Shown here: piece by piece, positions 27,091-43,506 of the stretch
Numbering within the stretch: position 1 is the first letter of the stretch
Layout of the letters: each line of letters begins with the position of its first letter
NCBI GenBank assembly: GCA_963677925.2
Contig: CAXXYH010000003.1
Span: forward strand, 1,056,001 to 1,120,000
Length of the DNA stretch: 64,000 nucleotides
DNA from: Spirochaetia bacterium
GTDB taxonomy: Bacteria; Spirochaetota; Spirochaetia; UBA9216
Reading direction: 5' to 3'
The notes under the pieces: model-generated
What the model was told of the DNA's origin: nothing
Databases searched by the model: none
Seen by the model: only the letters and a program-made list of their open reading frames with translations
Made by a program: the position numbers and the translations under genes

Positions 27091-27133
27091 ATAAAAAAAG
27101 CCTGCTGAAAATATTTCAGCAGGCTTTTTTTAT
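27091..27133 (-). terminator. Intrinsic terminator of the BMC operon
   Basis: Perfect 20-bp arms ATAAAAAAAGCCTGCTGAAA / TTTCAGCAGGCTTTTTTTAT. Confidence 0.88.
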
Positions 27134-27151
27134 TTATTCAGTTTTGGAGAT

Positions 27152-27949
27152 TTAATATCCTGATTCTATGGTCTGTCCCTGCACTATTTTCACCCCGCCG
27201 CTTGTTCCAAGCCTGGTTGCTCCGGCGTTGATCATAGCAACTGCATCATCAAAGGTCCGGACTCCGCCGGCAGCCTTTACTCCCATATCAGGACCGACAG
27301 TCCTTCTCATAAGAGCGACATGCTCGGGAGTTGCACCGTGAGTTGAAAATCCGGTTGAAGTCTTTACAAAGTCAGCCCCGGCTTTTTTAGTAATTTCTGA
27401 AGCAAGAACAATTTCCTCGGTTGTAAGCAGGGCTGTTTCAATAATAACCTTCAGCAGGGCACGCTGTCCGCAGGCGCGTCTTACCCATTTGATATCCTCT
27501 TCAACAAGTTTCAGATCACGGTCTTTCATGGCTCCGATATTCATAACCATATCAATCTCGGTGGCTCCGTCTTCAATGGCATGCCTTGTCTCAAAGTTTT
27601 TAGCTCTTGAGCTCATGGCGCCAAGCGGAAAACCGACAACACAGCAGACTTTAACATCAGTACCCTGAAGATTTTTCGCACAGCGGGCTACCCAGGTAGT
27701 ATTAACACATACCGAGCAGAAGTTGTACTGTTTTGCCTCAGCACAGAGTTTATCAATCTGTTCAGCAGTTGCATCAGCTTTAAGCAGGGTGTGATCAATA
27801 TATTTAGCGATGTCAGAAGGAATTAATACCTTGCTGCTCTCCGACGGGGCTGCTGCCGCAGACTGCGGAGCCAAAGCGGTTGCGCCTTCGTTTTTAAGTT
27901 TCTCTACTATCTCTCTGGTTATTTTATCGATTAGTTCTTTGTCGTCCAT
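27152..27949 (-). CDS. deoC: Deoxyribose-phosphate aldolase with N-terminal encapsulation peptide
   Basis: [32 protein letters not shown] and VKAAGGVR. Extra N-terminal amphipathic helix [19 protein letters not shown] plus an Ala/Pro/Ser linker. Confidence 0.93.
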
Positions 27950-27952
27950 GAG

Positions 27953-28447
27953 TTAACCATTACCTCTCTCTATTGCCATTATTTTATTGATTCTGGGCCA
28001 GTGTCTTCCGCCCTCAAACCTTGTCTCAAGCCATACCTTGCACATCTCACACAGCTCTTCCGGGCTGTGCAGAGGACCTCCAAGGGTCAGCACGTTTGCA
28101 TTGTTATGCACCCTGCTGTTTTCTATTGTACGCATGTTATAGCATAAGGCGGCTCTGATTCCCTTCACCTTGTTGCAGGCCATGGAGGAGCCTATTCCCG
28201 CTCCGTCTATCATAATACCGCGCTCGGCTTCCCCGCTGGCAACGCTCTTTGCCACCTTAAGTGCGTAGTCGGGATAGTCTACACTATCTGTTGAATATGT
28301 TCCAACATCTATGACCCTGTACCCGAGAACTTCAAGATATTTTTTCAGGATTTCTTTTGACATATATCCGCCGTGATCTCCGCCTATTGCGACACGGGAC
28401 ACATTCTCTTTCCTGTTTGCAGCTGTAAAATCTGTTTCACCGTACAT
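27953..28447 (-). CDS. rpiB: RpiB/LacAB-family sugar-phosphate isomerase
   Basis: GGDHGG, VDYPDYA, NKVKGIRAA, HNNANVL and FEGGRH; DGAGIG replaces the usual CGTGIG. Confidence 0.9.
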   Translation of the reverse strand: MYGETDFTAANRKENVSRVAIGGDHGGYMSKEILKKYLEVLGYRVIDVGTYSTDSVDYPDYALKVAKSVASGEAERGIMIDGAGIGSSMACNKVKGIRAALCYNMRTIENSRVHNNANVLTLGGPLHSPEELCEMCKVWLETRFEGGRHWPRINKIMAIERGNG

Positions 28448-28728
28448 TACTTACCTTCTTTTACCATATCTACGCGATCTACGATTGCCGCTGTTACAGT
28501 CCTGATAGGCTGAGAGCTCATCCCGAGCATAATACCCGCTGATCCGCCTTCATCTATAATCAAAACTGTATCACCCGCTCCGGCCTGAACAGTGTCAACA
28601 GCAACAATTTCCTTACCAATGATATTTCCTTCAGGGTCAATCTGCCTGAGAATCAGAAGCTTCTGACTTTCAAGTTTCCTGCTTTTCTGGGTTGAAACAA
28701 CCGTGCCGGTAACCTTTGCAAGTATCAT
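28447..28728 (-). CDS. BMC vertex pentamer (BMC-P, EutN/CcmL family)
   Basis: MILAKVTGTVVSTQK...VAVDTVQAGAGDTVL...AIVD. Confidence 0.93.
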   Translation of the reverse strand: MILAKVTGTVVSTQKSRKLESQKLLILRQIDPEGNIIGKEIVAVDTVQAGAGDTVLIIDEGGSAGIMLGMSSQPIRTVTAAIVDRVDMVKEGK

Positions 28729-28997
28729 GATTCCGCCCTGTCTATTCTGTCAATAATTCCAAGTACAGCCGCATCAGAAGGGTTAAACCAGTTATCCAGT
28801 GCAAGAGCAGCTTCGCGTCCGCCCTCATAGATAACAGTATCACCGGGCCCAGCCTGAACTGTATCACAGGCAACAACGGGGCTTCCGCTTTCTTTCATTT
28901 GATCATCAAGCGGCTGAACAAGCAGAAATTTTATCCCTTCAAGCGATTCATCCTTTCTGGTGCATATCACCGTACCGGTGACTCTTCCTATTTTCAT
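28725..28997 (-). CDS. BMC vertex pentamer (BMC-P)
   Basis: MKIGRVTGTVICTRK...VACDTVQAGPGD...DAAVLGIID. Confidence 0.93.
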   Translation of the reverse strand: MKIGRVTGTVICTRKDESLEGIKFLLVQPLDDQMKESGSPVVACDTVQAGPGDTVIYEGGREAALALDNWFNPSDAAVLGIIDRIDRAES

Positions 28998-29009
28998 GTC
29001 CCGGCTCCC

Positions 29010-30431
29010 TTATACTATTCTGAAATAATCAATAAGCGCACATCGTCTTTCCCGGGTAAATGTTCTGGCCCTTGTAAAGCCTTCCCCGGTTGGACTTGCA
29101 ATGGTAAAGGAGGTGTATCCTGCACCGCCGGTTCCCATTCCGTTGAAATTGGAACCGTTTTTCACAAACAGTGAGCAGTTGATTACCCTTGCCATCTTTG
29201 AAAGTTTTGCAATATTCATTGAGTGCATTGATGCCGAATGCCGGAAACCGTGTTCAACCTCAACAGCAAATGATATTGCTTCATCAACATCATCAACCCG
29301 CACAAGAGGCATTACCGGCATAAGCTGTTCGGTCCATACCAGAGGATGGGATCTATCAACTTCACAGAGAAGCAGCTTTGTCTCAGGCGGAACAGTGATT
29401 CCGGCAGCTGCAGCGATGACCGAAGCGTTCCTGCCTACAAACTTCTTGTTTGCAGCGCCCTCATCACCCTTTCGCCCCGGCTTATCTATAACATTGGCAG
29501 TTACGGCTTTGATCTGGTCGCTGTTTAATTCATAGGCGCCGTTTTTAACCATCTCAGCCTTAAGCCTGTCGGCTATAGACCGAACGGCAATAACTTCCTT
29601 CTCGCATATGCAGACTATGTTGTTATCAAAGCTCGCACCGGCAACGATATCCTTTCCCGCCTTTACAAGATCCGCGGTCTCATCGACTATACATGGAGGG
29701 TTGCCCGGACCTGCAGCAATAACCTTCTTGGTTGACTGCATTGCCTGCTTTACAACACCGGGACCGCCGGTAACTGTGAGAAGGTTTATATAGGGATGGG
29801 TCATCAGAACCTGAGCGCTTTCTATAGTAGGATTTGCAACAGTAACTATGATATTATCCGGTCCGCCGGCCTTTTTTACGGCTTCATTGAGAAGCCCCAC
29901 CGCAAAGACTGAGACATTCCTGGCACCCGGATGGGCGTTGAATACAACAGTGTTTCCGGCGGACAGCATGCTTATTGAGTTGTTGATTATGGTTTCGGTC
30001 GGATTTGTGCTTGGTGCAATTGCCCCTATAACTCCGTAGGGAGCCCTTTCAGTCAGGGTGAGGCCGTGATCATCGGTAAAGGTATGCGGCTGCACATCCT
30101 CCACTCCGGGAGTCATTGTCGCTGCAAGGATATTTTTCTTTATCTTATCCTCATAGCGGCCCATTCCGGTTTCTTCAACAGCCATCCGGGCGAATTCTTG
30201 TGCATTGGCAGATGCGGTATCACGAATTGATTGAATCACTGCCCGCCGTATTTCAAGAGATGTCTCCTGAAATACCTGAAATGCCTTATGAGATTCATAA
30301 ATTGCTGTGTTTATATCATCGAAGACACCGGGAACCGGTTTCATTGAATAGGAAACCGTCTTCTCTTTTCCTGAATATCCGCTGACTATTGATGTCACCA
30401 TTTCACGAATGGCTGATTCATTAATTTCCAC
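29010..30431 (-). CDS. CoA-acylating aldehyde dehydrogenase (EutE/PduP family) with N-terminal encapsulation peptide
   Basis: EETGMGRYEDK, PSTNPTET, TGGPGVV, AGPGNPP, SFDNNIVCICEKE and TIASPTGEG; leader MEINESAIREMVTSIV. Confidence 0.95.
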   Translation of the reverse strand: MEINESAIREMVTSIVSGYSGKEKTVSYSMKPVPGVFDDINTAIYESHKAFQVFQETSLEIRRAVIQSIRDTASANAQEFARMAVEETGMGRYEDKIKKNILAATMTPGVEDVQPHTFTDDHGLTLTERAPYGVIGAIAPSTNPTETIINNSISMLSAGNTVVFNAHPGARNVSVFAVGLLNEAVKKAGGPDNIIVTVANPTIESAQVLMTHPYINLLTVTGGPGVVKQAMQSTKKVIAAGPGNPPCIVDETADLVKAGKDIVAGASFDNNIVCICEKEVIAVRSIADRLKAEMVKNGAYELNSDQIKAVTANVIDKPGRKGDEGAANKKFVGRNASVIAAAAGITVPPETKLLLCEVDRSHPLVWTEQLMPVMPLVRVDDVDEAISFAVEVEHGFRHSASMHSMNIAKLSKMARVINCSLFVKNGSNFNGMGTGGAGYTSFTIASPTGEGFTRARTFTRERRCALIDYFRIV

Positions 30432-30978
30432 TTACATACCCCTTGATATCACTGTGCGGCACCGGTATTACTACGCTTCGGAAAAGTCTTTCCTTGCCTC
30501 GAAGAACAGCGCATGCGGTTTCAACCGCGTATTCCATATCACCGACAGGACCATTGAGTTTCAACAGACTTTTTCCGCCGGTTTCATTCCCGGCATTTAT
30601 TTCGACAACCTCGACTCCGGCGGCTTTCACCGCGGTATCAGCTGCTTCTATAGCCGATACAATTGAAGTTGTTTCAATCAGGCCCAGAGCATCCCAGTCT
30701 TCAGGCTCCCTCACCTGCTGTACGCAGCCGAGAACAGAATCATCAAGATTTCTAAGGACTGCCCGGTCATATATGGTATCTTCACCCGCTCCATATGCTT
30801 CATTCATAGCAGACTCTACCGAGGCAACATCACCGCATATAATTATCAGAAACTTTCCCGGATTTATAGTTTCAGCACGAAGAATCTCAACCGGGGCCTG
30901 TTTAACCATTGCATCAAGGGCAAAATATCCGTCGGCTATACTCTGGTACTCAAGCAGTCCTACTATTTCTATACTCAT
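30421..30978 (-). CDS. BMC tandem-domain shell protein (BMC-T, PduT-like)
   Basis: Two BMC domains: GLLEYQSIADG..ALDAMVK...GDVASV and ALGLIET....AIEAAD.AVKAA...VIPVPH. Confidence 0.9.
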   Translation of the reverse strand: MSIEIVGLLEYQSIADGYFALDAMVKQAPVEILRAETINPGKFLIIICGDVASVESAMNEAYGAGEDTIYDRAVLRNLDDSVLGCVQQVREPEDWDALGLIETTSIVSAIEAADTAVKAAGVEVVEINAGNETGGKSLLKLNGPVGDMEYAVETACAVLRGKERLFRSVVIPVPHSDIKGYVSGN

Positions 30979-31262
30979 TTGCGGAACACAACCTTATCTT
31001 TTTCTTCCACCTGATCAACAATCCCGATAATTATCGCATCTACAGGTTTATCCTTGCTGATTTTAGTCTGCCTGGTTGAGCTGCCCTGAGATAGAAGTAC
31101 AAGCTCACCGGCCGAGGCTCCCAGAGGATCCAGGGCGACAATACCGCCGCTTCCTTCTTTTCCGGAAGTATCACAGGGAATCACCAGCAGGTACCGGGCT
31201 TCATCTATTCCATCGGAACGTATAGCGGACACCACTGTTCCGGCCACCTTTGCAAGCATCAT
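30975..31262 (-). CDS. BMC vertex pentamer (BMC-P)
   Basis: LAKVAGTVVS...VALDPLGASAGELVL..QGSSTR...PVDAIIIGIVD. Confidence 0.93.
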   Translation of the reverse strand: MMLAKVAGTVVSAIRSDGIDEARYLLVIPCDTSGKEGSGGIVALDPLGASAGELVLLSQGSSTRQTKISKDKPVDAIIIGIVDQVEEKDKVVFRK

Positions 31263-31564
31263 CCGGCTGCCCCGCCTTTTTTATAGACTATTTTTCCCGA
31301 CATATCATAACTGTCCACTATACCGATGATAGTAGCGTCACTCGGTTTTCCTGCAGTTATATCTGTCTGCCGGCTGCTGCTGCCTCCGACAAAGAAAACG
31401 ATCTCGCCTTCACCGGCGCCGACAGCGTCCATAGCCACCACATAATCTTTTTTGCCTTCAAGAGTCTTTACATCTATCTTTTCAAGAAGGAGCAGTTTTA
31501 TCCCTTCAAGACGGGCTTCCTTTGCAGTCGAAACTACTGAGCCCACTACTCTTGCAAGTACCAT
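31259..31564 (-). CDS. BMC vertex pentamer (BMC-P)
   Basis: LARVVGSVVSTAK...VAMDAVGAGEGE..GSSSR...DATIIGIVD. Confidence 0.93.
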   Translation of the reverse strand: MVLARVVGSVVSTAKEARLEGIKLLLLEKIDVKTLEGKKDYVVAMDAVGAGEGEIVFFVGGSSSRQTDITAGKPSDATIIGIVDSYDMSGKIVYKKGGAAG

Positions 31565-31566
31565 AA

Positions 31567-31869
31567 TTATTTTTTCCCTTTAGTGTTTCTTCCAAGCGGC
31601 AGAACTTCATCGACACTGGCATGAGGTCTGGGGATAATATGCACGCTGATTACCTCACCGACCCTTTCGGCTGCCCTGCTGCCCGCGTCAAGAGCGGCTC
31701 TTACTGCAGCAACTTCACCGCGGCAGATTGATGTAATAAAACCGCCGCCGATTCTCTTGCATCCTATGAAATCAATATTGGCCGCCTTGGCCATTGCATC
31801 AGAGGCCTCTACCATCGCGGCAAATCCTCTTGTTTCTATCATGCCAAGCGCATTGTTTGTTGTAGACAT
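31567..31869 (-). CDS. BMC hexamer shell protein (BMC-H)
   Basis: ALGMIETRG..AMVEASDAMAKAA...RGEVAAVRAA...HIIPRPH. Confidence 0.96.
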   Translation of the reverse strand: MSTTNNALGMIETRGFAAMVEASDAMAKAANIDFIGCKRIGGGFITSICRGEVAAVRAALDAGSRAAERVGEVISVHIIPRPHASVDEVLPLGRNTKGKK

Positions 31870-31882: not shown

Positions 31883-32506
31883 TTATAGTGCTTTTCCGCT
31901 GATATCAGCGAGCTTAGACTCTACGGTATCTTTACTTACAAGTACTTCCGATTCTTCACCGGCTATATAGATTCTTCCAAACTTTCCTATGCCCGATACA
32001 TTGATTATGTTGATGTTTGAAGCTTTTTCAGCCTCATTGGCAGCATAGTAGGCGTACCCGGCCGGCTCAATCTCAAGGATGAATACTGTATCTCCGCGGA
32101 GCACCATATTGCCGAACCTGACTTTGTTGATCAGCTGTGCATGGTGATCGCTTATGTTCTTAATCAGCTGGCTTGTGAGAATCTTCGGCTTAAGCCGATC
32201 TTCCTCTTTAAGATTAAGAGCTTCAAGAATTGCAGCGCCTGCCTGTCTTGCATCGCCCTGGCTGTCAGAATGAACCTCGAGTAGACCGAAAGACCTTTCT
32301 ACCACCTGAATACCCGGAGTTACACCGGTAGCCTTTAATGCGATGTCGGTAAGCCTGTTGATCTCTATACCGGGTGCAATCTCTACAATTGCACAGGCCT
32401 GTCCGCCCACCGGAAAATAACCTCTTGATACAGTACACATGTAAGAGGCCATCTGCAGCTGCAGTGAATCTATAAAGTTAAATGTCCTCAGTTCTATATT
32501 CTGCAT
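31883..32506 (-). CDS. BMC permuted tandem-domain shell protein (BMC-Tdp, CcmP-like)
   Basis: ELRTFNFIDSLQ, EIAPGIEIN, QVVERSFGLLEVH and AANEAEKA, as in gated double-stacking trimers. Confidence 0.9.
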   Translation of the reverse strand: MQNIELRTFNFIDSLQLQMASYMCTVSRGYFPVGGQACAIVEIAPGIEINRLTDIALKATGVTPGIQVVERSFGLLEVHSDSQGDARQAGAAILEALNLKEEDRLKPKILTSQLIKNISDHHAQLINKVRFGNMVLRGDTVFILEIEPAGYAYYAANEAEKASNINIINVSGIGKFGRIYIAGEESEVLVSKDTVESKLADISGKAL

Positions 32507-32805
32507 TACTTGGCTCCTGATTCACTCAGGGGGAGTTTGCTGTCTACGGATGCATCAGGTCTTGGAATAATATGTACGGATACAACTTCTCCAACCCTTT
32601 CAGCAGCCTTGCTGCCTGCATCAAGCGCTGCTCTTACAGCCGCAACATCTCCTCTGATTATTGCTGTAACATAACCGCCGCCGGTTTCCTCGTGGCCCTT
32701 AAGCTCTACTTTAGCAGCCTTTACCATAGCATCCGCAGCTTCTACCATTGCGGCGAAGCCCCTGGTTTCTATCATGCCCAGAGCGTTTTCTTTGTTATCA
32801 GTCAT
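32506..32805 (-). CDS. BMC hexamer shell protein (BMC-H)
   Basis: ALGMIETRGFAAMVEAADAMVKAAKV...TGGGYVT..RGDVAAV...HIIPRP. Confidence 0.96.
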   Translation of the reverse strand: MTDNKENALGMIETRGFAAMVEAADAMVKAAKVELKGHEETGGGYVTAIIRGDVAAVRAALDAGSKAAERVGEVVSVHIIPRPDASVDSKLPLSESGAK

Positions 32806-32851: not shown

Positions 32852-33607
32852 TTAATCCATGTAATAGCCGCCGTTGATATTAACTGTCTCTCCGTTTATA
32901 AAGGATGATTCGTCTGAAGACAGGAACATCATCAGATTAGACATATCCTTAATTGTACCGAGTCTCTTAACCGGAATTTTATCAGCCATAGACTGCTTTT
33001 TCTCATCATCCCAGTATTCCATCATTTTAGTCATTACAGCGTGGGGAGCGATTGCATTGCAGGTTACACCAAAGGGTCCAAGCTGTCTGGCAACAGACCG
33101 GGTAATGGTAATTACAGCGCCCTTGGATGCTCCATAAACGAAAGTAGTGCTGTTGTCACCGTTTTTGCCGGTGATTGAAGCCACATTTACAATTTTGCCA
33201 TATTTCTGTTTTTTCATGATCGGTGTTACAGCACGTATGGCATAAAGTACACCTTTAATATTAATGTCTATAGTCGCGTCGATCAAATCATTTGATGTAT
33301 CTTCAATTGTTGCAGATTTCAGCAGACCGGCATTGTTCACGAGTATATCCATACTTCCGAACTTAGCCACTGCATCATTTATACATGCCTTAACCGCTTC
33401 ATCATCAGAAACATCGCACACGGCTGACATATATTTTACACCCTTTTTCTCAAGTACGCCCCTAGTTTCTTCAAGAGCTTTTTCATCTATATCTGTAATT
33501 ACAACAATAGCTCCTTCATCAGCCATATCAAATGCAAGCTGCTGCCCCATACCCTGTCCGGCACCGGTTATAAATGCAACTCTGCCGGTAAATCTGTCTT
33601 CTCTCAT
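32852..33607 (-). CDS. SDR-family oxidoreductase, first gene of the BMC operon
   Basis: TGAGQGMG, NNAG and YGASK; Asp after beta-2 (ITDID) suggests NAD(H). GGAGG RBS before ATG 33607; only 46 bp separate it from BMC-H. Confidence 0.92.
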   Translation of the reverse strand: MREDRFTGRVAFITGAGQGMGQQLAFDMADEGAIVVITDIDEKALEETRGVLEKKGVKYMSAVCDVSDDEAVKACINDAVAKFGSMDILVNNAGLLKSATIEDTSNDLIDATIDINIKGVLYAIRAVTPIMKKQKYGKIVNVASITGKNGDNSTTFVYGASKGAVITITRSVARQLGPFGVTCNAIAPHAVMTKMMEYWDDEKKQSMADKIPVKRLGTIKDMSNLMMFLSSDESSFINGETVNINGGYYMD

Positions 33608-33668
33608 ATTTCCTCCGCTAAGAATGTATAAAAAGATAATTTCAAATATTTTATTTAACAGTAGCAAC

Positions 33669-33698
33669 ATTCTAATGTTATTTTTGCAACATTGTCAA
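33669..33698 (-). promoter_or_regulatory. sigma70 promoter of the SDR-BMC operon, overlapped by a putative DeoR operator
   Basis: Minus strand TTGACA-18 bp-TAGAAT; the operator ATGTTGCAAAAATAACATT (33692-33674) fills the spacer. Confidence 0.72.
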
Positions 33699-33902
33699 TC
33701 AATTTTTATAACATTTGTTGTGCATAATTTATATATACTACATTTTGCTATCTATTTACATCTTTTTATGATAGCTTAAAATAAAGAGACAGGATAATAA
33801 TGAACTCATCATAACATTTATAACAATAGTAACATTTTTATATTGACAGAACGCAGCTTAGATGTATTAAATATATCATAAGAATTTACCAAGCAAGGAA
33901 TT

Positions 33903-34697
33903 ATGGATAAAAAAGAACAGAGGCTAAATTATATCATTGAGCACCTGAAAAAAAATAATGCGGCCAGCATCAGAGAACTATCCGAATTATGCAATGTTAC
34001 AATGATGACAATTCGCCGCGATCTGGAAATTCTGAAAGAACGGAACATAATCAAGTTTTTTCATGGCGGAGCCGTTTATAACCCGGATTACAAAGAAAAC
34101 CCAGAGCAGCATATAGACTATCTAATACAAAAACAGAAGATGCTGCACAAAGAGGAAAAGCTTGCTATCGCGAAATCAGCCGCAGCTCTTATTTCCGAAA
34201 ATGAAACAATCATGCTGGACAGCGGCACCACAATCTTTTATTTGAGTAAAGAGATTCCAAATGAATTCAGCTTAACCACAATCTGCTGGTCTTTAAATAT
34301 AATTGAAGTTCTTACTAAAAAACAAAAATGCAACATGATTGCAAGCGGAGGTATTTACCACCACGAGACCCAGATGTTTGAAAGTCTCCAGGGTCTTGAT
34401 TTGGTAAAAAATACACGAGCCTCAAAAGCCTTTATTTCCGCCGGCGGCGTACACAAAGATCTTGGTGTAACATGCCCCTTCCCCTATGAAGCAGAAACAA
34501 AAAGAGCGGCAATAAAATCGAGTATGACAAACATTCTTCTTGTTGACTCATCAAAGTTCAATAAGGTCTGTACAGGACATTTAGGTGATATAACTGATTT
34601 CGACATCGTCATCACAGATCATAATATATCGGATGAATACAGAGAGTTCCTCTTAGAAAAAGGAGTCTCTCTGATTATTGCCGAAGATCCTAAATAG
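33903..34697 (+). CDS. DeoR/GlpR-family transcriptional regulator
   Basis: ELCNVTMMTIRRDLEIL wHTH, EKLAIAKSAA, LDSGTT and LLVDSSKF. Confidence 0.95.
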   Translation: MDKKEQRLNYIIEHLKKNNAASIRELSELCNVTMMTIRRDLEILKERNIIKFFHGGAVYNPDYKENPEQHIDYLIQKQKMLHKEEKLAIAKSAAALISENETIMLDSGTTIFYLSKEIPNEFSLTTICWSLNIIEVLTKKQKCNMIASGGIYHHETQMFESLQGLDLVKNTRASKAFISAGGVHKDLGVTCPFPYEAETKRAAIKSSMTNILLVDSSKFNKVCTGHLGDITDFDIVITDHNISDEYREFLLEKGVSLIIAEDPK

Positions 34698-36372: not shown

Positions 36373-37428
36373 CTATAAAACCTGCGGATTACCAACCATC
36401 CTCGGCCTTCCCCCGCCTAGATAGGTGAGCAGTTCACCTCTCATTATATTCGGAGCATTCCAGTAGGAAGCCCTTGTGTCACCCGCTCTGTGATTTGAGA
36501 GAGTAAGATTATCAAGCTTCACAAGCGGACTGTCTGCAGGAAGTGGTTCCTGTTCAAAGACATCCATTGCCGCCCCCTGAATTTGTTTTGATTCAAGCGC
36601 GGATATCAAAGCCTGGGTATTCACAAGTCCCGCCCGTGCAGAATTAATAAGATATGCTGATGATTTCATCATTTCGAACTGCGGAGCATCGATCAGTTTT
36701 GAAGTCTCAGGAGTCAGTCTAACATGCAGAGAAATAATATCTGCTTCTTTCAGGAGTTCTTCGAATTTGACAGGAATGCAGCCCCTGGCTTTAACAGCAT
36801 CATCGGGAACGAAGGGATCACTTACCATTATTCTGCAGTCGAATGATTTAAGTTTATCCGCAAGCAGCTGTCCATTCTGTCCAAATCCCACAAGCCCTAC
36901 CGTCAATTCATTCAACTCGGGGATATATGCCGAATTCGGATAAAATTCCCTCCATTCACCGGTCTTAAGCGCATAATGAGACCTGGCAATATTTCGGGTC
37001 TCTGAAAGTATAAGCCCTACTGTATATTCTGCCACTGCCATTGCGTTATGATTAGGCGTATGAATAACAGGAATACCCCGCTTTGTAGCTTCCTCCATGT
37101 CAATATTTTCAAGGCCTCCTCTGGCGGAAAGAATGACCTTCAGATTTTCAGCACTGTCGAGAATTTCTTTATTAATAGGACATATATTTACAGCAACAAA
37201 TTCAACATCCTTAATCAGTTCCGGCAGTTCATCAGGAAACGGAACTCCGGAGGGACCATGCTCCTCAAGCAGTCTGTATACATTTCTAATCTCTGCACGA
37301 TCATTACAGGGAAAATCAAGCATTTTAAAACTCTGGACATCTTTTTCAATATTATCGCCGATAAATACCTTTTTCAGTATTTCCGTAGGCAGGAGATAAT
37401 CTCCAACAACCAATCCTTTCATAATCAA
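36373..37428 (-). CDS. D-isomer-specific 2-hydroxyacid dehydrogenase (PGDH-like)
   Basis: NAMAVAEY, VGLVGFGQNG, ISLHVRL, INSARAGLV, MDVFEQEP and NHRAG. Confidence 0.9.
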   Translation of the reverse strand: MIMKGLVVGDYLLPTEILKKVFIGDNIEKDVQSFKMLDFPCNDRAEIRNVYRLLEEHGPSGVPFPDELPELIKDVEFVAVNICPINKEILDSAENLKVILSARGGLENIDMEEATKRGIPVIHTPNHNAMAVAEYTVGLILSETRNIARSHYALKTGEWREFYPNSAYIPELNELTVGLVGFGQNGQLLADKLKSFDCRIMVSDPFVPDDAVKARGCIPVKFEELLKEADIISLHVRLTPETSKLIDAPQFEMMKSSAYLINSARAGLVNTQALISALESKQIQGAAMDVFEQEPLPADSPLVKLDNLTLSNHRAGDTRASYWNAPNIMRGELLTYLGGGRPRMVGNPQVL

Positions 37429-38627
37429 CTCCTTCCTTTAATTAACTTGTATGCCTCATCAAGGGGTATGCCATCCTGAGGAATATACTTTCGCCAGTAA
37501 GCTACAGTATCCTTCAGATGCTGAAGTGCATCCTGAGGATATTGAACATTAGATATAAAGATCTCAAATGCAAGTAAAATTTCATCAGTCGGTTCCGGCA
37601 TTCCGGCCTCGCCGGTCTTTTCGCAGGCCTTCATCAGAGATTCAATCATCCTCTCACCTATAATTATGCCTTCTTTATTTGTTTCATCAGTAAAGGGCGC
37701 ATGTGATGATTTCACACCGTCAGTCTGCTGCATGTGAACTATAGGTGAATAGGCTCCAAGTTCTTCTATCCACAAGTAAGGATCACTTTCAGCCCCGTCA
37801 GCAAACATATAACTGTACTTATCAAGCAGCGAGAGCATATCCCTGATGAAATTATCATCGGTATTCCGGCCTGACTGTATATACTCCCTGATTCTGGTAT
37901 ACACAGGCTCCGGCCCCAGCCAATAGTCGAAAGCCATTCGGCCTTCCCTAGCTTTATCCAGAGCATACTTAATCATTTCCGGATCCGGCTTAGTGAATTT
38001 CCTCTGCCCTACCATATGCCCTACATCGAGAGCTATGTAAAAAGGCCTTCCTGACTTTTTATATACATCAGATATTAATTTTTTTGATTCAGCGATTCTC
38101 CACGGATGCTGATATGGCGCATACATCTGCTCACAGCACAATTTTACTCCTGAGTGAGCAGCAGCATATTCAGATAATTCCGCATACTCTTTAACAACAG
38201 TATCAACGGCAGCTTTATATTTATCACTGTCATTTAAATCTTCCTCCTGAAATGCATGGAAGGAAAATCCGATTGACGCTGAGTTCAGCTCTTCAGCATG
38301 ATCAATTAAAGGCTTAAACCACTCATCTTTAATTTTATTCCGAATTCTTGGATCAGGATGTGCCAAACCTGCTGTCCTGTAGGTTTGATAACCGGTGAAG
38401 AAGCTTTTAACCTGCATCCCGTACAAAGATTCATACTTCTTAACTTCTCTTACCCAATCTTTCCTATAATCCTCAGGACAAAAGAGGGGATCAATTTCAT
38501 TATCGGTACTCGCTTCTATCACAGAGGCTCCTAAATCTTTAATAACCCTCATCCACTGCTCAGGAGTAATCCATCGCTTAATGGCAAAACAGTTATCCAT
38601 TGACAGATAAAGTTTCGGATACTTCAT
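37425..38627 (-). CDS. TIM-barrel sugar-phosphate epimerase (EryC-like, xylose isomerase/AP-endonuclease-2 fold)
   Basis: HPD..R....WFK, CEQM, LDVGH, DPYLW, SPIVHMQQ, H.PFT..N..G and FE motifs resemble my recollection of Brucella EryC, with an insertion after DVGH. Confidence 0.7.
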   Translation of the reverse strand: MKYPKLYLSMDNCFAIKRWITPEQWMRVIKDLGASVIEASTDNEIDPLFCPEDYRKDWVREVKKYESLYGMQVKSFFTGYQTYRTAGLAHPDPRIRNKIKDEWFKPLIDHAEELNSASIGFSFHAFQEEDLNDSDKYKAAVDTVVKEYAELSEYAAAHSGVKLCCEQMYAPYQHPWRIAESKKLISDVYKKSGRPFYIALDVGHMVGQRKFTKPDPEMIKYALDKAREGRMAFDYWLGPEPVYTRIREYIQSGRNTDDNFIRDMLSLLDKYSYMFADGAESDPYLWIEELGAYSPIVHMQQTDGVKSSHAPFTDETNKEGIIIGERMIESLMKACEKTGEAGMPEPTDEILLAFEIFISNVQYPQDALQHLKDTVAYWRKYIPQDGIPLDEAYKLIKGRS

Positions 38628-38768
38628 AAATGACCTCAATTTATTATGTTTCTTTTGTATCATAACTTTATATATATTTACCACTTTCTGTCAATAGAAT
38701 GTTTTTTTTCTAAATTTTATTTCTATATTTTTTTCTTGACAATACATATTTCCCATTTTAATCTATTT

Positions 38769-38787
38769 ATGTTGCTAATATAACATT
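38769..38787 (+). promoter_or_regulatory. Putative DeoR operator, second copy
   Basis: ATGTTGCTAATATAACATT is 17/19 identical to the site at 33692-33674; a degenerate copy lies at 38646-38663. Confidence 0.7.
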
Positions 38788-38820
38788 TTACTTGATAAAC
38801 CTTACATAACGGAGACCACA

Positions 38821-39864
38821 ATGCTTGCATATGTATATGACGGAGAAAAAAACCTGCACTTGAAAGAAGTTGAAAAGCCTTCGGCAAAAAAGAAAAGTGC
38901 TGTAATAAAAGTTGATGCAACATCTATCTGCGGGACAGATTTAAGAGCATACAGATTCGGTTCTACAAAAATAAACTCAGGTTCAATCATGGGGCATGAA
39001 TCTGTAGGCACAATTATTGAAATAGGCAGTGAAGTTTCAAATTTTAAAGTTGGAGATCGGGTACAGATAGCGCCTGCAATCGGATGCGGTCAATGTCACT
39101 ACTGCAAAAAAGGTTTCACAAACCTCTGTGACAGCTTAAAAACCATAGGATTTAACTTTGACGGAACTTTTGCTGAATACATGGAAATTCCGGCAGAGGC
39201 TTTTGAACAGGATCATGTTACAAAGGTACCTGAGGGACTGCCTTCAGAGCAGGCGGTGCTGGCTGAACCTATAGCCTGTGTGGCTAATGCGCAGGAATAT
39301 CTCGATATCAAGGAAGGAGATATTGTACTTGTAATAGGCTCCGGATTTATAGGCTCCATGCATGCAGATCTTGCCTTCAGCAAGGGGGCGGCAAGAGTTT
39401 TCATGTCTGAACTCAATGATCACCGTATAAAGATGGCGAAAAAGTTCCTGCCCAGACTGGAAATGATCGATTCTTCTAAAGAAGACTTAAAAACAGCCGT
39501 TATGGACAAAACATCCGGAAGAGGTGTTGATGTAGTTATAGTGGCCTGCTCTGTTGGACCGGCACAAACCGATGCTATGAACGTTGTGGCCAAAAGGGGA
39601 AGAGTCAGTCTTTTCGGGGGGCTGCCGAAAGAAACAACGGGCTTCATTGACAGCAATATAATTCACTACAAGGAAGTCTCTGTATATGGAGCACATGCAT
39701 CAACTGTAAAACAAAACAGAGAAATGCTGAATCTTATTGCCAACGGTACATTGAATGTAAAACCTTTCATTGAGAAGACATTCCCCCTCAGAGAAATAGA
39801 AAATGCTTTCAAAGCACTTAATGATGAGAGTATAGTTAAGGCAGTTTTAAAACCAGGAGAGTGA
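38821..39864 (+). CDS. Zn-dependent polyol dehydrogenase (sorbitol/L-iditol dehydrogenase-like, MDR)
   Basis: ICGTD, GHE, CGQCHYC...C structural Zn motif, LAEP and GSGFIG. Confidence 0.92.
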   Translation: MLAYVYDGEKNLHLKEVEKPSAKKKSAVIKVDATSICGTDLRAYRFGSTKINSGSIMGHESVGTIIEIGSEVSNFKVGDRVQIAPAIGCGQCHYCKKGFTNLCDSLKTIGFNFDGTFAEYMEIPAEAFEQDHVTKVPEGLPSEQAVLAEPIACVANAQEYLDIKEGDIVLVIGSGFIGSMHADLAFSKGAARVFMSELNDHRIKMAKKFLPRLEMIDSSKEDLKTAVMDKTSGRGVDVVIVACSVGPAQTDAMNVVAKRGRVSLFGGLPKETTGFIDSNIIHYKEVSVYGAHASTVKQNREMLNLIANGTLNVKPFIEKTFPLREIENAFKALNDESIVKAVLKPGE

Positions 39865-39874
39865 ATTAACAGTT

Positions 39875-41374
39875 ATGGAGCATAAAGTCCTTGAGATGAG
39901 AGACATCTATAAAAGCTACTCATTTGTCAGTGTTTTAAGAGATGTTTCCTTCTCATTAAATGAAGGTGAAATTTTAGGTTTGGTCGGTGAAAATGGTGCG
40001 GGAAAGTCAACATTAATGAAGATACTCTCAGGCGGCACACAGCCTGATTCAGGAACCGTTATTATTGATGGAAATGAAGTTGAAATAGACAGTCCTATTA
40101 CTGCAAAACAGCATCGTATTGCTATGGTACAACAGGAATTGAGTCTGATATCCTCGCTTACCGTTACTGATAATATCGTACTTGGTACAGAATATAAGCG
40201 GCCATTTTTCAAATTTCTTGATTATGAGAAGAATAAAAAATATGCTCAGGCAGCTCTGGATACAGTGAAGCTTTCAGTACCGCTCAATGCCAGAATCAGC
40301 AGCCTTAAAGTTGCAAATCAGCAAATGATTGAGATAGCAAGAAATATCATCAGAGAACCCAGAGTTCTGATTCTTGATGAGCCTACAACAGCTCTGACAA
40401 TTATTGAAACTGAAGCCCTTCTAAACCAGCTTCTGGAACTTAAAGCCAAGGGAATATCGATAATTTTCATATCTCATAAACTTGAAGAAGTAATAAAGAT
40501 TTCCGACCGGATTATGATAATGCGTGATGGTGAGAAAGTCAGCGAACTGAAAAAAAATGAAGCAAGCAGAGATATTCTTATCAGACATATGGTTGGAGAT
40601 AAAGAGTTTTTTGTAAAATCTGCGAGTCGCTCAGATGAAGCCAGAAAGGATAACATTGTTTTTGAAGTTAAAGATTTCAATAAAGAAGGAGTTTTTAAAA
40701 ATATATCCTTCGCTCTTAATGAGGGAGAAATTCTGGGCTTTTTCGGATTAAAAGGCGCAGGAAGAAGCGAGACCTTTCACTCTATATTCGGAATTGACGC
40801 AAAGGATTCAGGAGAAGTTCTGATAGAAAAAGAAACCAGAAACTTTCGGAACCCTACTGATGCGATAAACGCCGGAATGGGTCTGGTAAGTGAAGATCGT
40901 AAATTTAACGGGATATTTCCGGATATGGATATAAAAAACAATATTCTGCTTTCTGATATGAAATCGGTATCAACAAAAGCCGGTTTTATCAGAACAATCC
41001 ATATGAGCAGAATAGCCAAAGAATTAATTAAAAGACTTGGAATAAAAACAACCAGCACTGAACAGCATATAAAACGGCTCAGCGGAGGAAATCAGCAGAA
41101 GGTCATGATTTCAAGATGGCTGCATACTAACAGCAAAATTCTAGTTCTGGACGAACCTACGAAAGGAGTAGATGTCGGAGCCAAACAGGATATATACAAA
41201 CAGATACGCAGCTTCTCGGAAGAAGGAAAAGGAGTCGTGGTCATTTCCTCGGAGCTGGAAGAAGTTATGCTGCTCAGTAATAGAATTGCTGTTATGAGGA
41301 GCGGGGAGATTCAGGCAATATTGAGCGGTTCGGATATAAATGCAAAAACCATAATGCATTATGCTGCCGGCTGA
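39875..41374 (+). CDS. Sugar ABC transporter ATP-binding protein (RbsA-like)
   Basis: GENGAGKST, LDEPTTAL, LSGGNQQKV and DEPTKGVDVGAK. Confidence 0.94.
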   Translation: MEHKVLEMRDIYKSYSFVSVLRDVSFSLNEGEILGLVGENGAGKSTLMKILSGGTQPDSGTVIIDGNEVEIDSPITAKQHRIAMVQQELSLISSLTVTDNIVLGTEYKRPFFKFLDYEKNKKYAQAALDTVKLSVPLNARISSLKVANQQMIEIARNIIREPRVLILDEPTTALTIIETEALLNQLLELKAKGISIIFISHKLEEVIKISDRIMIMRDGEKVSELKKNEASRDILIRHMVGDKEFFVKSASRSDEARKDNIVFEVKDFNKEGVFKNISFALNEGEILGFFGLKGAGRSETFHSIFGIDAKDSGEVLIEKETRNFRNPTDAINAGMGLVSEDRKFNGIFPDMDIKNNILLSDMKSVSTKAGFIRTIHMSRIAKELIKRLGIKTTSTEQHIKRLSGGNQQKVMISRWLHTNSKILVLDEPTKGVDVGAKQDIYKQIRSFSEEGKGVVVISSELEEVMLLSNRIAVMRSGEIQAILSGSDINAKTIMHYAAG

Positions 41375-41400
41375 TTGGTTTTAGAAAGGAGATACTGACT

Positions 41401-42372
41401 GTGGTTGAAAAAATAAATGAAAGATTATCCGGCAGAAGAATATCAACAATTTTAAAAGACAACGGAGTCTTAATTGTATTACTGGGAATTATTATTGTTC
41501 TATCATTTGCATCGCCCTACTTCCTGCAAATCGGAAATATTATGGATGTGGCTAAACAGGCGGCTATCAATGGAATTATCGCGCTGGGTATGACCTATGT
41601 CATAACTACCGGAGGTATTGATCTTTCAGTTGGTTCTACCTGGGCATTAAGCGGAGTTACTGCGGCGCTACTCATGAAAGCAGGAATTCCATGGCCTCTT
41701 GCTCTTATCGCCTGTATAATAGTCGGCTGTATATGCGGATATCTTTCCGGATTACTGATCACAAAGGGAAAACTTCAGCCCTTTATTGCAACCCTTGCAA
41801 CCATGAATGTATACCGCGGACTTGCACTGATAATCACAGGGGGCTACACAATTTACGGACTTCCGCAGTCTTTCAGAACTATAGGCGGAGGAACTGTTTT
41901 ACAGTTTATACCGATGGCAGTAATTATTTTCCTTTTTATCTATATAATCTCATGGCTTATTTTCAGCCATCAGGTTTTCGGAAGATACTTGACTGCTATA
42001 GGAAATAACAGGGAAGCCGCCCGCCTCACAGGTATAAATGTGAATAAAATGATTACTCTATCTTATATGTATTCCGGACTTCTTTGCGCAATAGGCGGCG
42101 GTATTGTGGCGACATCAAGACTTGGAGCCGCAGAACCAACTATTGGCAGCGGCGCTGAACTTAATGCAATTGCTGCAGTGGTAATAGGCGGTACTTCAAT
42201 GGCAGGCGGTGAAACAAAAATTCGTGGAACCTTATTTGGTGCAATTTTATTAAGTGCAATCAACAATGGGCTGACACTCCTTAATGTACCTACTTACTAC
42301 AAGATTGCTGTAATCGGTCTGATCATCATAATTGCAATGCTCGTTGATTCATTCAGCAGAGCTGAAAAATAA
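41401..42372 (+). CDS. Sugar ABC transporter permease (RbsC-like)
   Basis: TGGIDLSVGS, LQPFIATL and ELNAIAAVVIGGTSMAGG. Confidence 0.94.
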   Translation: MVEKINERLSGRRISTILKDNGVLIVLLGIIIVLSFASPYFLQIGNIMDVAKQAAINGIIALGMTYVITTGGIDLSVGSTWALSGVTAALLMKAGIPWPLALIACIIVGCICGYLSGLLITKGKLQPFIATLATMNVYRGLALIITGGYTIYGLPQSFRTIGGGTVLQFIPMAVIIFLFIYIISWLIFSHQVFGRYLTAIGNNREAARLTGINVNKMITLSYMYSGLLCAIGGGIVATSRLGAAEPTIGSGAELNAIAAVVIGGTSMAGGETKIRGTLFGAILLSAINNGLTLLNVPTYYKIAVIGLIIIIAMLVDSFSRAEK

Positions 42373-42426
42373 AATTGGTTGATTAAATTCCAGCTAAAAC
42401 TGGAAAATTATTTAAGGAGGAAGCAA

Positions 42427-43506
42427 ATGAGGAAAGTTGCTTTCATAGCAGTATTATTACTGTTGACTTGTCTGACTTTTACTTGGGCAGGAGGAAATCA
42501 GGAAACTAAATCAGTACCTGCAACAGGAAGTGTTGCATTCTTGGATGACTCAGAAGGTCTTGTTAATGGAGAATTCCTGGACGGCGTACCTAAACCCAGC
42601 AAGAATTATAAAATTGCAAACATCACACGAACACTCCTGAACGCTCACTGGATTAAAAACGGTGAAGGATTTGAAGCTGCAGGTGCACATTACGGAGTGA
42701 CCGCAGATGTATTCGCAGTTCAGTCTGAACAGGACGTAATGGATCAGGCAAACATTCTTGATACAGTAATTGAAAAAGGATACGACGCAATTGTCTGCTC
42801 TCCGATTACGGAACAGAATCTGCTTCCCGGCCTTTCTAAAGCCAGTGCAGCAGGTATAGTAATTGTTAATGTCGATACAGCAGCAATTACAAAAGCTGAT
42901 GCAAAGCTTAATAACATTGAAATTACAACATTTATTGGTTCTGATAACTATGATGCAGGTGTTATGGCAGCTGATTACATAAGTAAACAGCTCGGCAGCA
43001 AATCAGGCAAGGTTGCAATTATTGAAGGTAATCCTGCTGATACATGTGCTGTTGACAGAACAGGCGGTTTCGCCAACAGAGCAAAAGAACTCTCAAACCT
43101 TACACTTGTAGCTTCACAGACTGCAAAATGGGACAGACTCCAGGCTCTTGATGTCACAACAAGTATCCTCCGTGCTAATCCTGATATTCGGGGTATTTAT
43201 TGCAACAACGACACCATGGTTCTTGGTGCAATGCAGGCAGCTCAGGATCTAGGATATGAAATACTTACCAGCGATACTCTTAATAAAGCAGGACAGGATA
43301 AGACTCTGCTGCTCATAGGTAATGACGGAGTAGCCGAAGCTCTTGAGGCTGTTCAGAATGGTGCTCTTACCGGTACCATCGCTCAGAAACCCTACCTTAT
43401 GGGATATGCAGCAGTAGAAGCAGCAATCATGAAACTGGAAGGTAAAACACCTGAAAGTCTGATTGCAACACCAATCAAGCTAGTTGTTAAGAGCGACTAT
43501 AAATAA
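42427..43506 (+). CDS. Sugar ABC transporter substrate-binding protein (RbsB/AlsB-like)
   Basis: RTLLNAHW, IGSDNYDAG, AKWDR, CNNDTMVLGA and IAQKPYLMGY; signal ends WAGGNQE; AGGAGG RBS before ATG 42427. Confidence 0.9.
   Translation: MRKVAFIAVLLLLTCLTFTWAGGNQETKSVPATGSVAFLDDSEGLVNGEFLDGVPKPSKNYKIANITRTLLNAHWIKNGEGFEAAGAHYGVTADVFAVQSEQDVMDQANILDTVIEKGYDAIVCSPITEQNLLPGLSKASAAGIVIVNVDTAAITKADAKLNNIEITTFIGSDNYDAGVMAADYISKQLGSKSGKVAIIEGNPADTCAVDRTGGFANRAKELSNLTLVASQTAKWDRLQALDVTTSILRANPDIRGIYCNNDTMVLGAMQAAQDLGYEILTSDTLNKAGQDKTLLLIGNDGVAEALEAVQNGALTGTIAQKPYLMGYAAVEAAIMKLEGKTPESLIATPIKLVVKSDYK

Follow-up and report, generated by a model that had tools for sequence, protein, structure and literature searches.

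A sugar phosphate utilization microcompartment core set in a DeoR-controlled sugar/polyol module of a Spirochaetia bacterium, a candidate feeder pathway that would end in deoxyribose-phosphate aldolase

Among bacterial microcompartments (BMCs), the sugar phosphate utilization (SPU) type is represented by 206 loci curated by Dwyer, Sutter and Kerfeld in 2024. According to the main text of that work, a CcmP-like BMC-Tdp shell protein marks the subtypes SPU2 and SPU3, the deoxyribose-phosphate aldolase (DERA, the product of deoC) of SPU6 cleaves 2-deoxyribose-5-phosphate (dR5P), and DNA breakdown is proposed as the source of dR5P (PMC11585597). The source of the SPU substrate is, in the same text, only inferred as DNA debris, and the ribose-5-phosphate isomerase (RPI) homologue that partners DERA has no assigned reaction. 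Here we analyse an SPU locus of a Spirochaetia bacterium (assembly GCA_963677925.2), contained in a stretch of 64,000 nucleotides (contig CAXXYH010000003.1, positions 1,056,001 to 1,120,000), which we call the window and whose numbering we use throughout. The organelle itself is of a known kind; what is new is the link between its core and a sugar module that ends in DERA. The analysis combined open reading frame (ORF) listing, Pfam, NCBIfam and PDB profile searches, synteny and trees, and its comparative part supports well the wiring of the SPU core into a DeoR-controlled sugar/polyol module. We put at about 60% the probability that the core was inserted into the terminal operon of a module that is conserved, under DeoR control and completed by the DERA reaction, and that this module feeds the organelle. 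Below, L, G and C numbers denote loci, genomes and contigs.

The minus-strand operon that runs from 33607 to 27152 encodes, in order, a short-chain dehydrogenase/reductase (SDR), BMC-H, BMC-Tdp, BMC-H, two BMC-P, BMC-Ts, an aldehyde dehydrogenase (AldDH), two BMC-P, an RpiB-like protein and DeoC. It is divergent from deoR on the plus strand. A second minus-strand operon, comprising the genes for a xylose-isomerase-like TIM-barrel protein (hereafter TIM), a 2-hydroxyacid dehydrogenase (2HDH) and an FGGY kinase, converges on the 3′ end of deoR and is itself divergent from a plus-strand operon for a zinc-dependent alcohol dehydrogenase (Zn-ADH) and an ABC importer. All genes named in a preliminary description of this DNA were recovered at their positions by ORF listing, Pfam and NCBIfam. 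Among public sequences, L001, from a metagenome-assembled genome (MAG) of Spirochaetia, is nearest to the locus, with most proteins 91–100% identical.

The core is a known SPU-type microcompartment. Its minus-strand genes encode two BMC-H proteins (32506–32805 and 31567–31869; PF00936, 102.7 and 95.1 bits) on either side of a 207-residue BMC-Tdp (31883–32506), a first pair of BMC-P proteins (31259–31564 and 30975–31262; PF03319, 79.5 and 90.2 bits for the pair), a BMC-Ts with tandem BMC domains (30421–30978; two PF00936 stretches, 130.5 bits), a CoA-acylating AldDH of the EutE/PduP type (29010–30431; NF011927 (PRK15398), 660 bits), a second BMC-P pair (28725–28997 and 28447–28728; PF03319, 82.6 and 96.2 bits for the pair), the RpiB-like protein (27953–28447; TIGR01120, 155.5 bits against a cut-off of 138.65) and DeoC (27152–27949; TIGR00126, 293 bits over residues 47–257). 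A bidirectional hairpin resembling an intrinsic terminator (27090–27134; 20-pair stem with 6 GC pairs, T-runs on both sides) closes the operon after DeoC. The Tdp, of the CcmP/HO-5816-like stacking gated trimer type, was recognized by PDB profiles (259.7 bits to 5v76, 259 bits to CcmP 5lsr/4ht5, 192 bits to CsoS1D), the Pfam score being only 19.7 bits.

With the described SPU loci (Axen 2014; Sutter 2021; Dwyer 2024) this core shares the extended DERA, the RPI homologue with Cys66 replaced by Asp beside it, the acylating AldDH, two BMC-H, at least three BMC-P (here four), one tandem BMC-T and, as in SPU2/SPU3, a CcmP-like Tdp. It shares also the lack of a phosphotransacylase (PTAC, PF06130) in the Tdp-carrying type, none being present among the locus ORFs scanned. 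A genome-wide search showed no second BMC locus in the 5.04 Mb of this genome, again as in SPU organisms, and many metagenomic SPU loci have exactly the gene order of this core. On the CcmP-type Tdp we provisionally assign it to an SPU2/3-like subtype. It differs in PduS, which the main text of Dwyer et al. reports for every subtype except SPU6, counting it as present when over 50% of loci have it (PMC11585597); no PduS (PF01512) was seen among the ORFs of 23460–47057, the genome beyond that range not having been searched for it. It also differs in that the core has no DeoR of its own and lies behind an SDR gene, within a module of importer, three dehydrogenases, TIM and kinase. The main text of PMC11585597 does not mention 'transporter', 'DeoR' or 'short-chain', and has 'kinase' in the reference list only. 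Literature searches, made in one library and without the per-locus supplements to Sutter 2021 and Dwyer 2024, yielded no paper that connects SPU with a sugar/polyol feeder module.

The catalytic proteins of the core conform to what has been published for SPU. DeoC carries an N-terminal extension of about 46 residues, an encapsulation peptide (EP) consisting of an amphipathic helix and an A/S-rich linker, followed by a canonical enzyme with visible KTSTG and VKAAGG motifs. The extension aligns in 10/10 BMC-linked DeoCs and is missing in 6/6 DeoCs of the shell-free module clusters described below. The N-terminus of AldDH, VEINESAIREMVTSIVSG, precedes the Pfam domain, which begins at residue 38, and may be EP-like as well. 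In the RpiB-like protein, alignment to solved RpiBs shows that ICGTG (CGTG) has become IDGAGIG (DGAG), so that Asp occupies the position of the catalytic Cys; this is the case in all 31 SPU-linked RpiB-like copies examined, and the genome's other RpiB, on contig C4, retains CGTG. The protein is probably a DERA partner or scaffold and not an isomerase of ribose-5-phosphate (R5P). The main text of PMC11585597 states that every SPU DERA bears an N-terminal extension not found on other DERAs, that N-terminal EPs are predicted on SPU AldDHs except those of SPU6, and that in all SPU RPIs Asp replaces the Cys66 of E. coli; for SPU6, a subtype other than that of the window, it shows an RPI with negligible R5P isomerase activity that forms a complex with DERA, and a scaffold role is proposed. 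Since both the EP and the Cys-to-Asp exchange were already published for SPU, our observations are confirmations of these properties and not discoveries.

The genes around the core form a sugar/polyol module. The first gene of the operon, for a 251-residue SDR (32852–33607, minus strand; PF13561, 207 bits), belongs to it, as SDR orthologues of 64–77% identity, collinear at both the N- and C-termini, adjoin DeoC in shell-free clusters. The longer ORF of this gene (to 33670, 272 residues) was considered as a possible EP-bearing form and ruled out, because orthologue alignment, ribosome-binding site and promoter place the start at 33607 (MREDRFTG). The DeoR-family repressor, of the module type (33903–34697, plus strand; PF00455 and PF08220), has E. 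coli-type DeoR as its best NCBIfam model, at 181 bits below the cut-off of 244. The AraB-like FGGY kinase, FGGY-a (34690–36360, minus strand), scores 618 bits against a cut-off of 428 for ribulokinase NF003154, and 540 bits, below the cut-off of 583, for TIGR01234; it is the sole one above the NF003154 cut-off among 23 FGGY-like matches genome-wide, a number that points to an unusually broad sugar/polyol repertoire. The D-isomer-type 2HDH (36373–37428, minus strand; PF02826, 185 bits) is nearest to phosphoglycerate dehydrogenases (PGDHs; TIGR01327, 228 bits, below cut-off; PDB 1wwk, 176 bits). The Zn-ADH, of polyol/threonine-dehydrogenase type (38821–39864, plus strand; PF08240 and PF00107), matches the tdh and IolM models with 211 and 177 bits, both below cut-off, and its translation shows Cys, His-Glu and four-Cys motifs, which we take to bind zinc. 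The importer, of Rbs/Als type (39875–43506, plus strand; PF00005 twice, PF02653 and PF13407), consists of an ATPase (39875–41374), a permease (41401–42372) and a substrate-binding protein (SBP, 42379–43506) nearest to D-allose-binding protein (196 bits, below cut-off; 155 bits to 1gub). Solved relatives did not reveal a substrate, as the PDB gave generic names only: allose- or ribose-binding proteins for SBP, threonine dehydrogenases for Zn-ADH, PGDH or glyoxylate reductases for 2HDH and FabG for SDR.

The TIM protein (37425–38627, minus strand; 400 residues of the AP_endonuc_2 type, PF01261, 48 bits) is the most distinctive component. It matches no NCBIfam model, its 263 homologues carry only generic names or KO-style EryC names, and the ESM Atlas holds for it unnamed PF01261 clusters only. 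Its best solved match is Brucella EryC, 4k3z (hmmsearch E 7.6e-18; Foldseek, from an AlphaFold2 model of pLDDT 84, E 1e-15 at 19% identity). Its initial designation as an EryC-like epimerase holds as remote homology, but nothing closer is indicated by a 19% identity and the lack of an NCBIfam match. The start at 38627 is likely from the family consensus MxYPKxYL and the promoter, which ruled out the alternative that an ORF starting at GTG 38684 bears an EP; the extension results from ORF calling.

We used TIM as a query against contigs of one genome per species, retrieved 80 loci with 10-kb flanks and searched all window proteins against them. Nine of the 80 loci hold a TIM of at least 50% identity, and seven of these, from Spirochaetota, Bacillota (Christensenellales) and Planctomycetota, are long enough to judge. 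All seven encode SBP, permease, ATPase, Zn-ADH, TIM, 2HDH, AraB-like kinase and SDR, always with DeoC and nearly always with DeoR. The module proteins are 48–99% identical across these loci (48–79% without the near-identical L001), the importer orthologues 58–79%. In five of the seven, there is no shell gene, AldDH or RpiB within 10 kb, and DeoC has no extension; four of these five genomes (MAGs, one of them a 4.07-Mb chromosome record) have no PF00936 match anywhere. The occurrence of the module with a cytosolic DeoC in shell-free genomes implies that it is an autonomous catabolic unit ending in DERA, with DeoC and SDR as parts of it.

TIM relatives also adjoin shells. Across all 80 loci, DeoC of at least 40% identity was found in 19 and shell genes in 13. 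Junctions of TIM with shells occur in the window and L001, in Treponema (L006), Rectinemataceae (L008), Atribacterota (L012, L013), Clostridia (L016, L019/L063, L067) and Spirochaetaceae (L031, L066), so that architectures other than that of the window are present in at least three phyla. In the Treponema locus, the module is flanked by a pair of SDR and EP-bearing DeoC and, opposite that pair, by a second shell locus, with PduS; the shells that a kinase–TIM pair abuts in Atribacterota and Clostridia carry PduS and triose-phosphate isomerase (TPI). That the junction was made in several different ways is the strongest argument for a functional link between module and shells. Among more distant relatives, a rhamnulokinase-like FGGY kinase clusters with TIM in 21 loci, in most as the adjacent gene, 23 loci have Zn-ADHs, about 23–30 have sugar ABC systems, and class II aldolases and TPI paralogues accompany TIM in Clostridia and Atribacterota.

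Two further groups of TIM loci were noted. In L032, L058, L051 and L074 (Cohnella, Paenibacillus and a MAG labelled Pleurocapsa), a distant variant of the cluster, TIM is found with DeoR, an ABC importer, a kinase, an aldolase and a GFO/IDH/MocA oxidoreductase; the kinase is a rhamnulokinase-like FGGY protein (497 bits against a cut-off of 528) and the aldolase a 286-residue class I enzyme of PF01791, not of deoC type. In L021 (Eubacterium callanderi, NZ_FRBP01000007.1), as well as in L020 and L022, all from cultured acetogens, TIM belongs to an RpiR-controlled operon with two Zn-ADHs (one galactitol-1-phosphate-dehydrogenase-like), a DeoC without extension, a GlpA/GlpB/DUF1667-type (EryB-like) FAD dehydrogenase and an FGGY kinase. 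Such an acetogen would be a tractable organism for identification of the substrate.

The two divergent regions of the window may be under common control. The 295-bp region between the SDR/BMC operon and deoR (33608–33902) holds, by promoter and motif scan, operator-like (G/A)(C/T)AACATT repeats. The best promoter-like site for the BMC operon, upstream of SDR, is TTGACA-18-TAGAAT on the minus strand (33698–33669; 11/12 matches), and four of the 11 window-wide matches to RYAACATTNW fall in this region, overlapping both the −35 and the −10 of that site; a palindrome, AACATTCTAATGTT, is also visible. The region between the TIM and the Zn-ADH/ABC operons (38628–38820), with a promoter-like site on the minus strand at 38694–38665, has one RYAACATTNW site at 38780, and 9–11-mers are common to both regions (ATGTTGCTA, TAGAATGTT and TATAACATTTT). 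In the orthologous loci, the motif is clear in L005, where a 12-mer, TTTATAACATTT, is common to the two equivalent regions, and weak in L003, L006 and L007. The shared motif fits a putative common operator of DeoR.

Trees of DeoC (a careful one, of 75 rows) and of DeoR (a quick one) gave different affiliations for the two proteins. DeoC of the window's genus groups (starred clade, 100/92) with the SPU DeoCs of G066, G091 and G184, which are shell-bearing, TIM-less genomes of the same family; the clade also takes in the metagenomic SPU locus L090, the module-adjacent DeoC of Treponema L006 and three extension-less DeoCs, and the DeoCs of shell-free module clusters fall outside it. The DeoR of the window, on the other hand, forms a starred six-row clade (99) with the module DeoRs of L001, L003, L004, L007 and L025, the DeoRs that lead stand-alone SPU cores being neighbouring clades; both kinds lie within one subfamily (a 29-row group, 93). 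Such mixed ancestry, DeoC with SPU and DeoR with the module, fits splicing. In G091 and G066 the same core order stands alone with its own DeoR in the lead (42% identity); flanking genes were annotated for G091 alone and are unrelated, comprising a GntR regulator with TRAP transporter and glycerate-kinase-like genes to one side and galactose genes to the other. Our reading is that, in the window's genus, an SPU core has replaced the module's DeoC behind the SDR gene and promoter of the module, with loss of the core's own regulator.

The DeoC tree gave no ground for a special 'module-type' DERA, an idea that we rejected, as the DeoCs of shell-free modules, those of SPU cores and the single-copy DeoCs of other genomes are all in the mainstream DeoC group. 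The EP label requires at least four changes on starred branches of this tree. The three extension-less DeoCs nested in the SPU clade (L170, L183 and L174, from G009, G134 and G113) are 69–75% identical to that of the window, and their genomes have no BMC-domain match, which suggests either loss of shell and EP or repeated gain.

The locus itself contains no nucleoside phosphorylase, phosphopentomutase, araA or araD, as first reported, though all are encoded elsewhere in the genome. About 1 Mb from the window, deoB (C3:2101021–2102181) lies with purine nucleoside phosphorylase (PNP) and a nucleoside-type ABC system; this location, together with a second DeoC that has no EP, supports the initial view that the input of the locus is probably not a nucleoside route. 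The locus shares with the enterobacterial deo regulon (DeoR, deoCABD) a DeoC operon and a DeoR-family repressor with E. coli DeoR as best model, but deoA, deoB and deoD are not in it, the repressor stays below the model's cut-off, and no deoCABD-type grouping of DeoC with phosphopentomutase and nucleoside phosphorylases was found. The second DeoC (250 residues, 198 bits; L088, G000:C3:1616000–1634000) has as neighbours a SorC/Bacillus-DeoR-like regulator, an AraC-type regulator, a 615-residue GlpA-like FAD dehydrogenase and a 409-residue protein with a C-terminal class II aldolase. None of these is a nucleoside gene, which weakened the idea that it is a housekeeping nucleoside enzyme; L088 is possibly a further cluster for polyol phosphates in which a DERA acts. 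Indeed, module-carrying genomes and relatives (G201–G205, G001, G066 and G091) have three to six deoC-type paralogues, all above the equivalog cut-off. Sphaerochaeta G203 has five copies, with deoB not found, and one of them, L199, has two FGGY kinases, one Zn-ADH and one 2HDH around it. Paralogues in such surroundings suggest that DERA-type aldolases are repeatedly used in the sugar clusters of this group. True araA and araD are on contig C4, araA beside an FGGY-family kinase of its own, and no araBAD grouping was seen in one regulon, the AraB-type kinase (618 bits) being alone in the locus.

How the module and the organelle might work together can be outlined from these genes. The AlsB/Rbs-type ABC system would import a neutral sugar or polyol, with a C5 pentitol or ketopentose as first choice; a pentitol or ketopentose is favoured as substrate, with free deoxyribose or a tetritol possible. 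In the cytosol, Zn-ADH, PGDH-like 2HDH, TIM, AraB-like kinase and SDR would convert it to dR5P or a close 2-deoxy-aldose phosphate, as should be delivered to the shell given that DeoC is canonical. The sugar phosphate would pass into the shell, where DERA would yield glyceraldehyde-3-phosphate (G3P) along with acetaldehyde, and the encapsulated AldDH would trap acetaldehyde as acetyl-CoA. The module-type DeoR, probably sensing a sugar-phosphate intermediate, would repress both divergent promoter pairs. We infer the order of the cytosolic steps, the substrate, the origin of the 2-deoxy group, the effector of DeoR and co-expression. The variants of the module suggest, by analogy, that TIM may act on a ketose-1-phosphate, as EryC does; this could be supplied by the AraB-like kinase and PGDH-like dehydrogenase, by a rhamnulokinase-like kinase, or by a kinase and GlpA-like dehydrogenase. 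In the fucose/rhamnose organelles of the Planctomycetes–Verrucomicrobia (PVM) and glycyl-radical (GRM5) types, a cytosolic isomerase and FGGY kinase are followed by an encapsulated aldolase that releases an aldehyde (compare Sutter 2021). The logic proposed here is the same, with phosphorylation outside the shell and the aldolase and its aldehyde enclosed with AldDH, and rhamnulokinase-like FGGY kinases are the partners of TIM in many relatives, some of which have a class II aldolase too; the differences are a class I DERA and acetaldehyde instead of lactaldehyde, and an isomerase of another family. For SPU types with such a Tdp, the main text of PMC11585597 suggests exit of acetyl-CoA through the Tdp pore.

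If this reading is correct, the locus and its relatives would provide SPU with its first concrete and testable upstream-feeder candidate, a seven-gene module ending in DERA, and the link hints at a supply other than DNA for this widespread organelle. The module would define an undescribed DERA-terminating sugar pathway, and, as its shell-free form is present in genomes of genera some of whose members can be cultivated (Sphaerochaeta, Eubacterium, Christensenellales), routine assays of growth, binding and enzyme activity in such organisms could reveal the substrate. The locus would also illustrate the insertion of a pre-existing organelle core into an established operon, the encapsulated aldolase replacing a cytosolic one.

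Several results weigh against this reading. Using Tdp as a query, we fetched 80 metagenomic SPU loci, of which 38 are of at least 6 kb and 21 of the 80 carry the full 10 kb upstream of Tdp; TIM is in none of the 38 related loci of at least 6 kb with the same core order. In a sample of 201 genomes of the class, 57 have BMC domains and four have TIM, all four also with BMC domains, which leaves 53/57 BMC-holding genomes without the module; in the window's family, TIM is in 1/10 genomes and BMC in 4/10. As the module is rare beside SPU cores, most SPU organelles must be supplied otherwise or from unlinked genes. The ancestry of DeoC and the RpiB-like protein, which came with the shell core and not with the module, means that the adjacency could be a recent accident at the level of the genus. 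No EP was seen on any of the five module enzymes (by alignment for SDR and by start-site reasoning for TIM), and for cofactor recycling the locus ORFs offer neither PTAC nor an alcohol dehydrogenase nor PduS. Conservation of the operator motif is partial, L004 and L025 being without it. We know of no established chemistry by which these enzyme families would turn an ordinary sugar or polyol into a 2-deoxy-aldose phosphate, and EryC, the nearest characterized relative of TIM, is described as a racemase or epimerase, not a dehydratase. Finally, FGGY-a, as the sole AraB-type kinase of a genome with araA and araD on C4, could simply feed L-ribulose-5-phosphate to AraD. In the light of these counts, the preliminary description's candidate new BMC pathway is not borne out as a general statement, since the shell core is a known SPU type and 38 related cores and 53 BMC genomes lack the module; TIM and shell genes occur together in 13/80 TIM loci, in several architectures, but TIM is not seen in the 38 related SPU cores. 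Its proposal that the two modules are functionally wired has gained support from the seven of seven long TIM loci with full module and DeoC, from the place of the window's DeoR among module-type DeoRs and from the AACATT repeats overlapping both divergent promoters.

The last of these objections leads to an alternative in which adjacency involves no shared flux: the organelle would degrade dR5P from nucleosides or DNA, and its neighbours would be an ordinary pentitol/ketopentose cluster (such as one converting L-arabitol or ribitol via L-ribulose into L-ribulose-5-phosphate) feeding AraD and the pentose phosphate pathway. We regard this as unlikely. It would account for the absence of the module from the 38 related cores and of TIM from 53 of the 57 BMC-holding genomes, for stand-alone SPU cores with their own DeoR in the same family, for the deoB, PNP and nucleoside-type ABC genes of this genome, for the score of FGGY-a above the ribulokinase cut-off alongside araA and araD on C4, and for the activity of SPU6 DERA on dR5P with its proposed DNA origin (main text of PMC11585597). 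However, it leaves unexplained why DeoC lies inside the module in 7/7 long orthologous loci, shell-less genomes included, why BMC genes stand behind a module SDR and beside a module-type DeoR, and why TIM relatives adjoin shells in several architectures; moreover, the ara locus on C4 has an FGGY-family kinase of its own beside araA. A second alternative is scavenging of free 2-deoxy-D-ribose, perhaps with its reduced or oxidized forms, in which ABC import and phosphorylation by the AraB-like kinase would give dR5P and the dehydrogenases and TIM would handle side substrates or anomers. This route, which would require no new deoxygenation chemistry, agrees with an SBP of the ribose/allose-binding type, a fully canonical DeoC (293 bits), the DeoC paralogues of G203, where phosphopentomutase was not found, and a regulator whose best model is E. 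coli DeoR. The effector of E. coli DeoR is dR5P. We nevertheless hold it to be quite unlikely, because the three dehydrogenases and TIM are conserved at 55–79% across three phyla, which argues for obligatory steps, and because the partners of TIM in the variant loci (rhamnulokinase-like kinase of 497 bits, class I PF01791 aldolase and GlpA-like dehydrogenase) point to ketose-1-phosphate chemistry. To our knowledge, moreover, deoxyribokinases are of the ribokinase family, not FGGY.

A tetritol route of the Brucella/Mycobacterium kind, in which polyol dehydrogenase, kinase, EryC-like isomerase and an RpiB-like erythrulose-4-phosphate isomerase would lead to erythrose-4-phosphate with the organelle as a side reaction, seems to us very unlikely. 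The erythritol pathway of Brucella and rhizobia (EryA, EryB, EryC, EryH/TpiA2, EryI/RpiB and EryD) does share with the locus an FGGY kinase, an EryC-related TIM barrel, an RpiB-family protein, a DeoR-type regulator and a sugar ABC importer, and its Brucella form proceeds through kinase, EryB, EryC, EryH and EryI (PMC5468441). In its favour are also the Brucella EryC match of TIM, the TPI paralogues that adjoin TIM and shells in L013, L016, L063 and L067, the GlpA/EryB-like FAD dehydrogenase of the Eubacterium variant and the lack of R5P activity of SPU RPIs, which leaves another substrate possible (main text of PMC11585597). But TIM is about 90 residues longer than EryC in addition to its low identity and matches no NCBIfam model, the kinase is AraB-like, that is, a C5 ketose kinase, and no EryB or EryH family is present among the locus ORFs, both occurring only in variant loci of other organisms. 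The RpiB-like protein scores 77.5 bits against a cut-off of 240 for the erythrulose-4-phosphate isomerase model NF051858 and is a component of the shell core; the shell-free clusters contain neither RpiB-like nor TPI genes, and the always-present DeoC would have no role, as the erythritol route does not use a DERA ending. These differences, together with the inactivity of SPU RpiB on R5P (main text of PMC11585597), do not support the erythritol analogy of the preliminary description and leave its polyol substrate a mere candidate. None of these alternatives explains the constant DeoC together with three dehydrogenases and TIM.

Within the preferred reading, a more far-reaching version, improbable in our estimate, is that SPU organelles, at least in these lineages, ferment sugars or polyols rather than scavenge DNA, through a redox-neutral, dehydrative route from pentitol or ketopentose to dR5P without radical chemistry. 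TIM would enolise a ketose-1-phosphate, in the manner of EryC, and then eliminate the beta-hydroxyl; SDR and 2HDH would reduce the diketone, and Zn-ADH would oxidise the terminal alcohol to the aldehyde before DERA acts. One beta-elimination, two ketoreductions and one alcohol oxidation would turn a pentitol into dR5P with no net redox change, and the DERA products, G3P and acetaldehyde, would balance the extra reducing power of the polyol. Were this so, a 2-deoxy sugar phosphate would gain a new enzymatic source, and the EryC superfamily a new function.

Some stand-alone SPU cores have accessory genes other than those of the window. An SDR orthologue (62–65% identity) is present in three of the 38 SPU loci, and in L128 the core is followed by SDR, FGGY kinase and ABC genes. 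In L095, L148, L157, L119 and L145 an aldose-1-epimerase-like gene follows DeoC, sometimes with an SDR orthologue; in L148 and L119 a ribulose-phosphate 3-epimerase gene precedes it, the accessory set thus differing from that of the window.

Two irregularities were seen in near-identical relatives. The AldDH gene is only partly matched in L001 (around 18262–19672), and in G039 (C5:15682–16935) one in-frame TAG lies within the TIM match; these may be assembly errors or recent inactivation. On the far side of the SBP gene of the window, 43617–47057 (minus strand) encodes a TetR regulator, a uroporphyrinogen-decarboxylase-like (URO-D-like) protein (weak PF01208) and TRAP DctM/DctQ proteins, of which L001 keeps the TetR and URO-D-like genes at the equivalent place. 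Just past the terminator of the BMC operon lies a gene for a methyl-accepting chemotaxis protein that combines a dCache_1 sensor and a HAMP domain (25175–27034, minus strand); this gene has its own terminator (25129–25155) and is followed by an ABC ATPase gene (23460–25061, minus strand); the chemotaxis protein could sense the same substrate as the locus.

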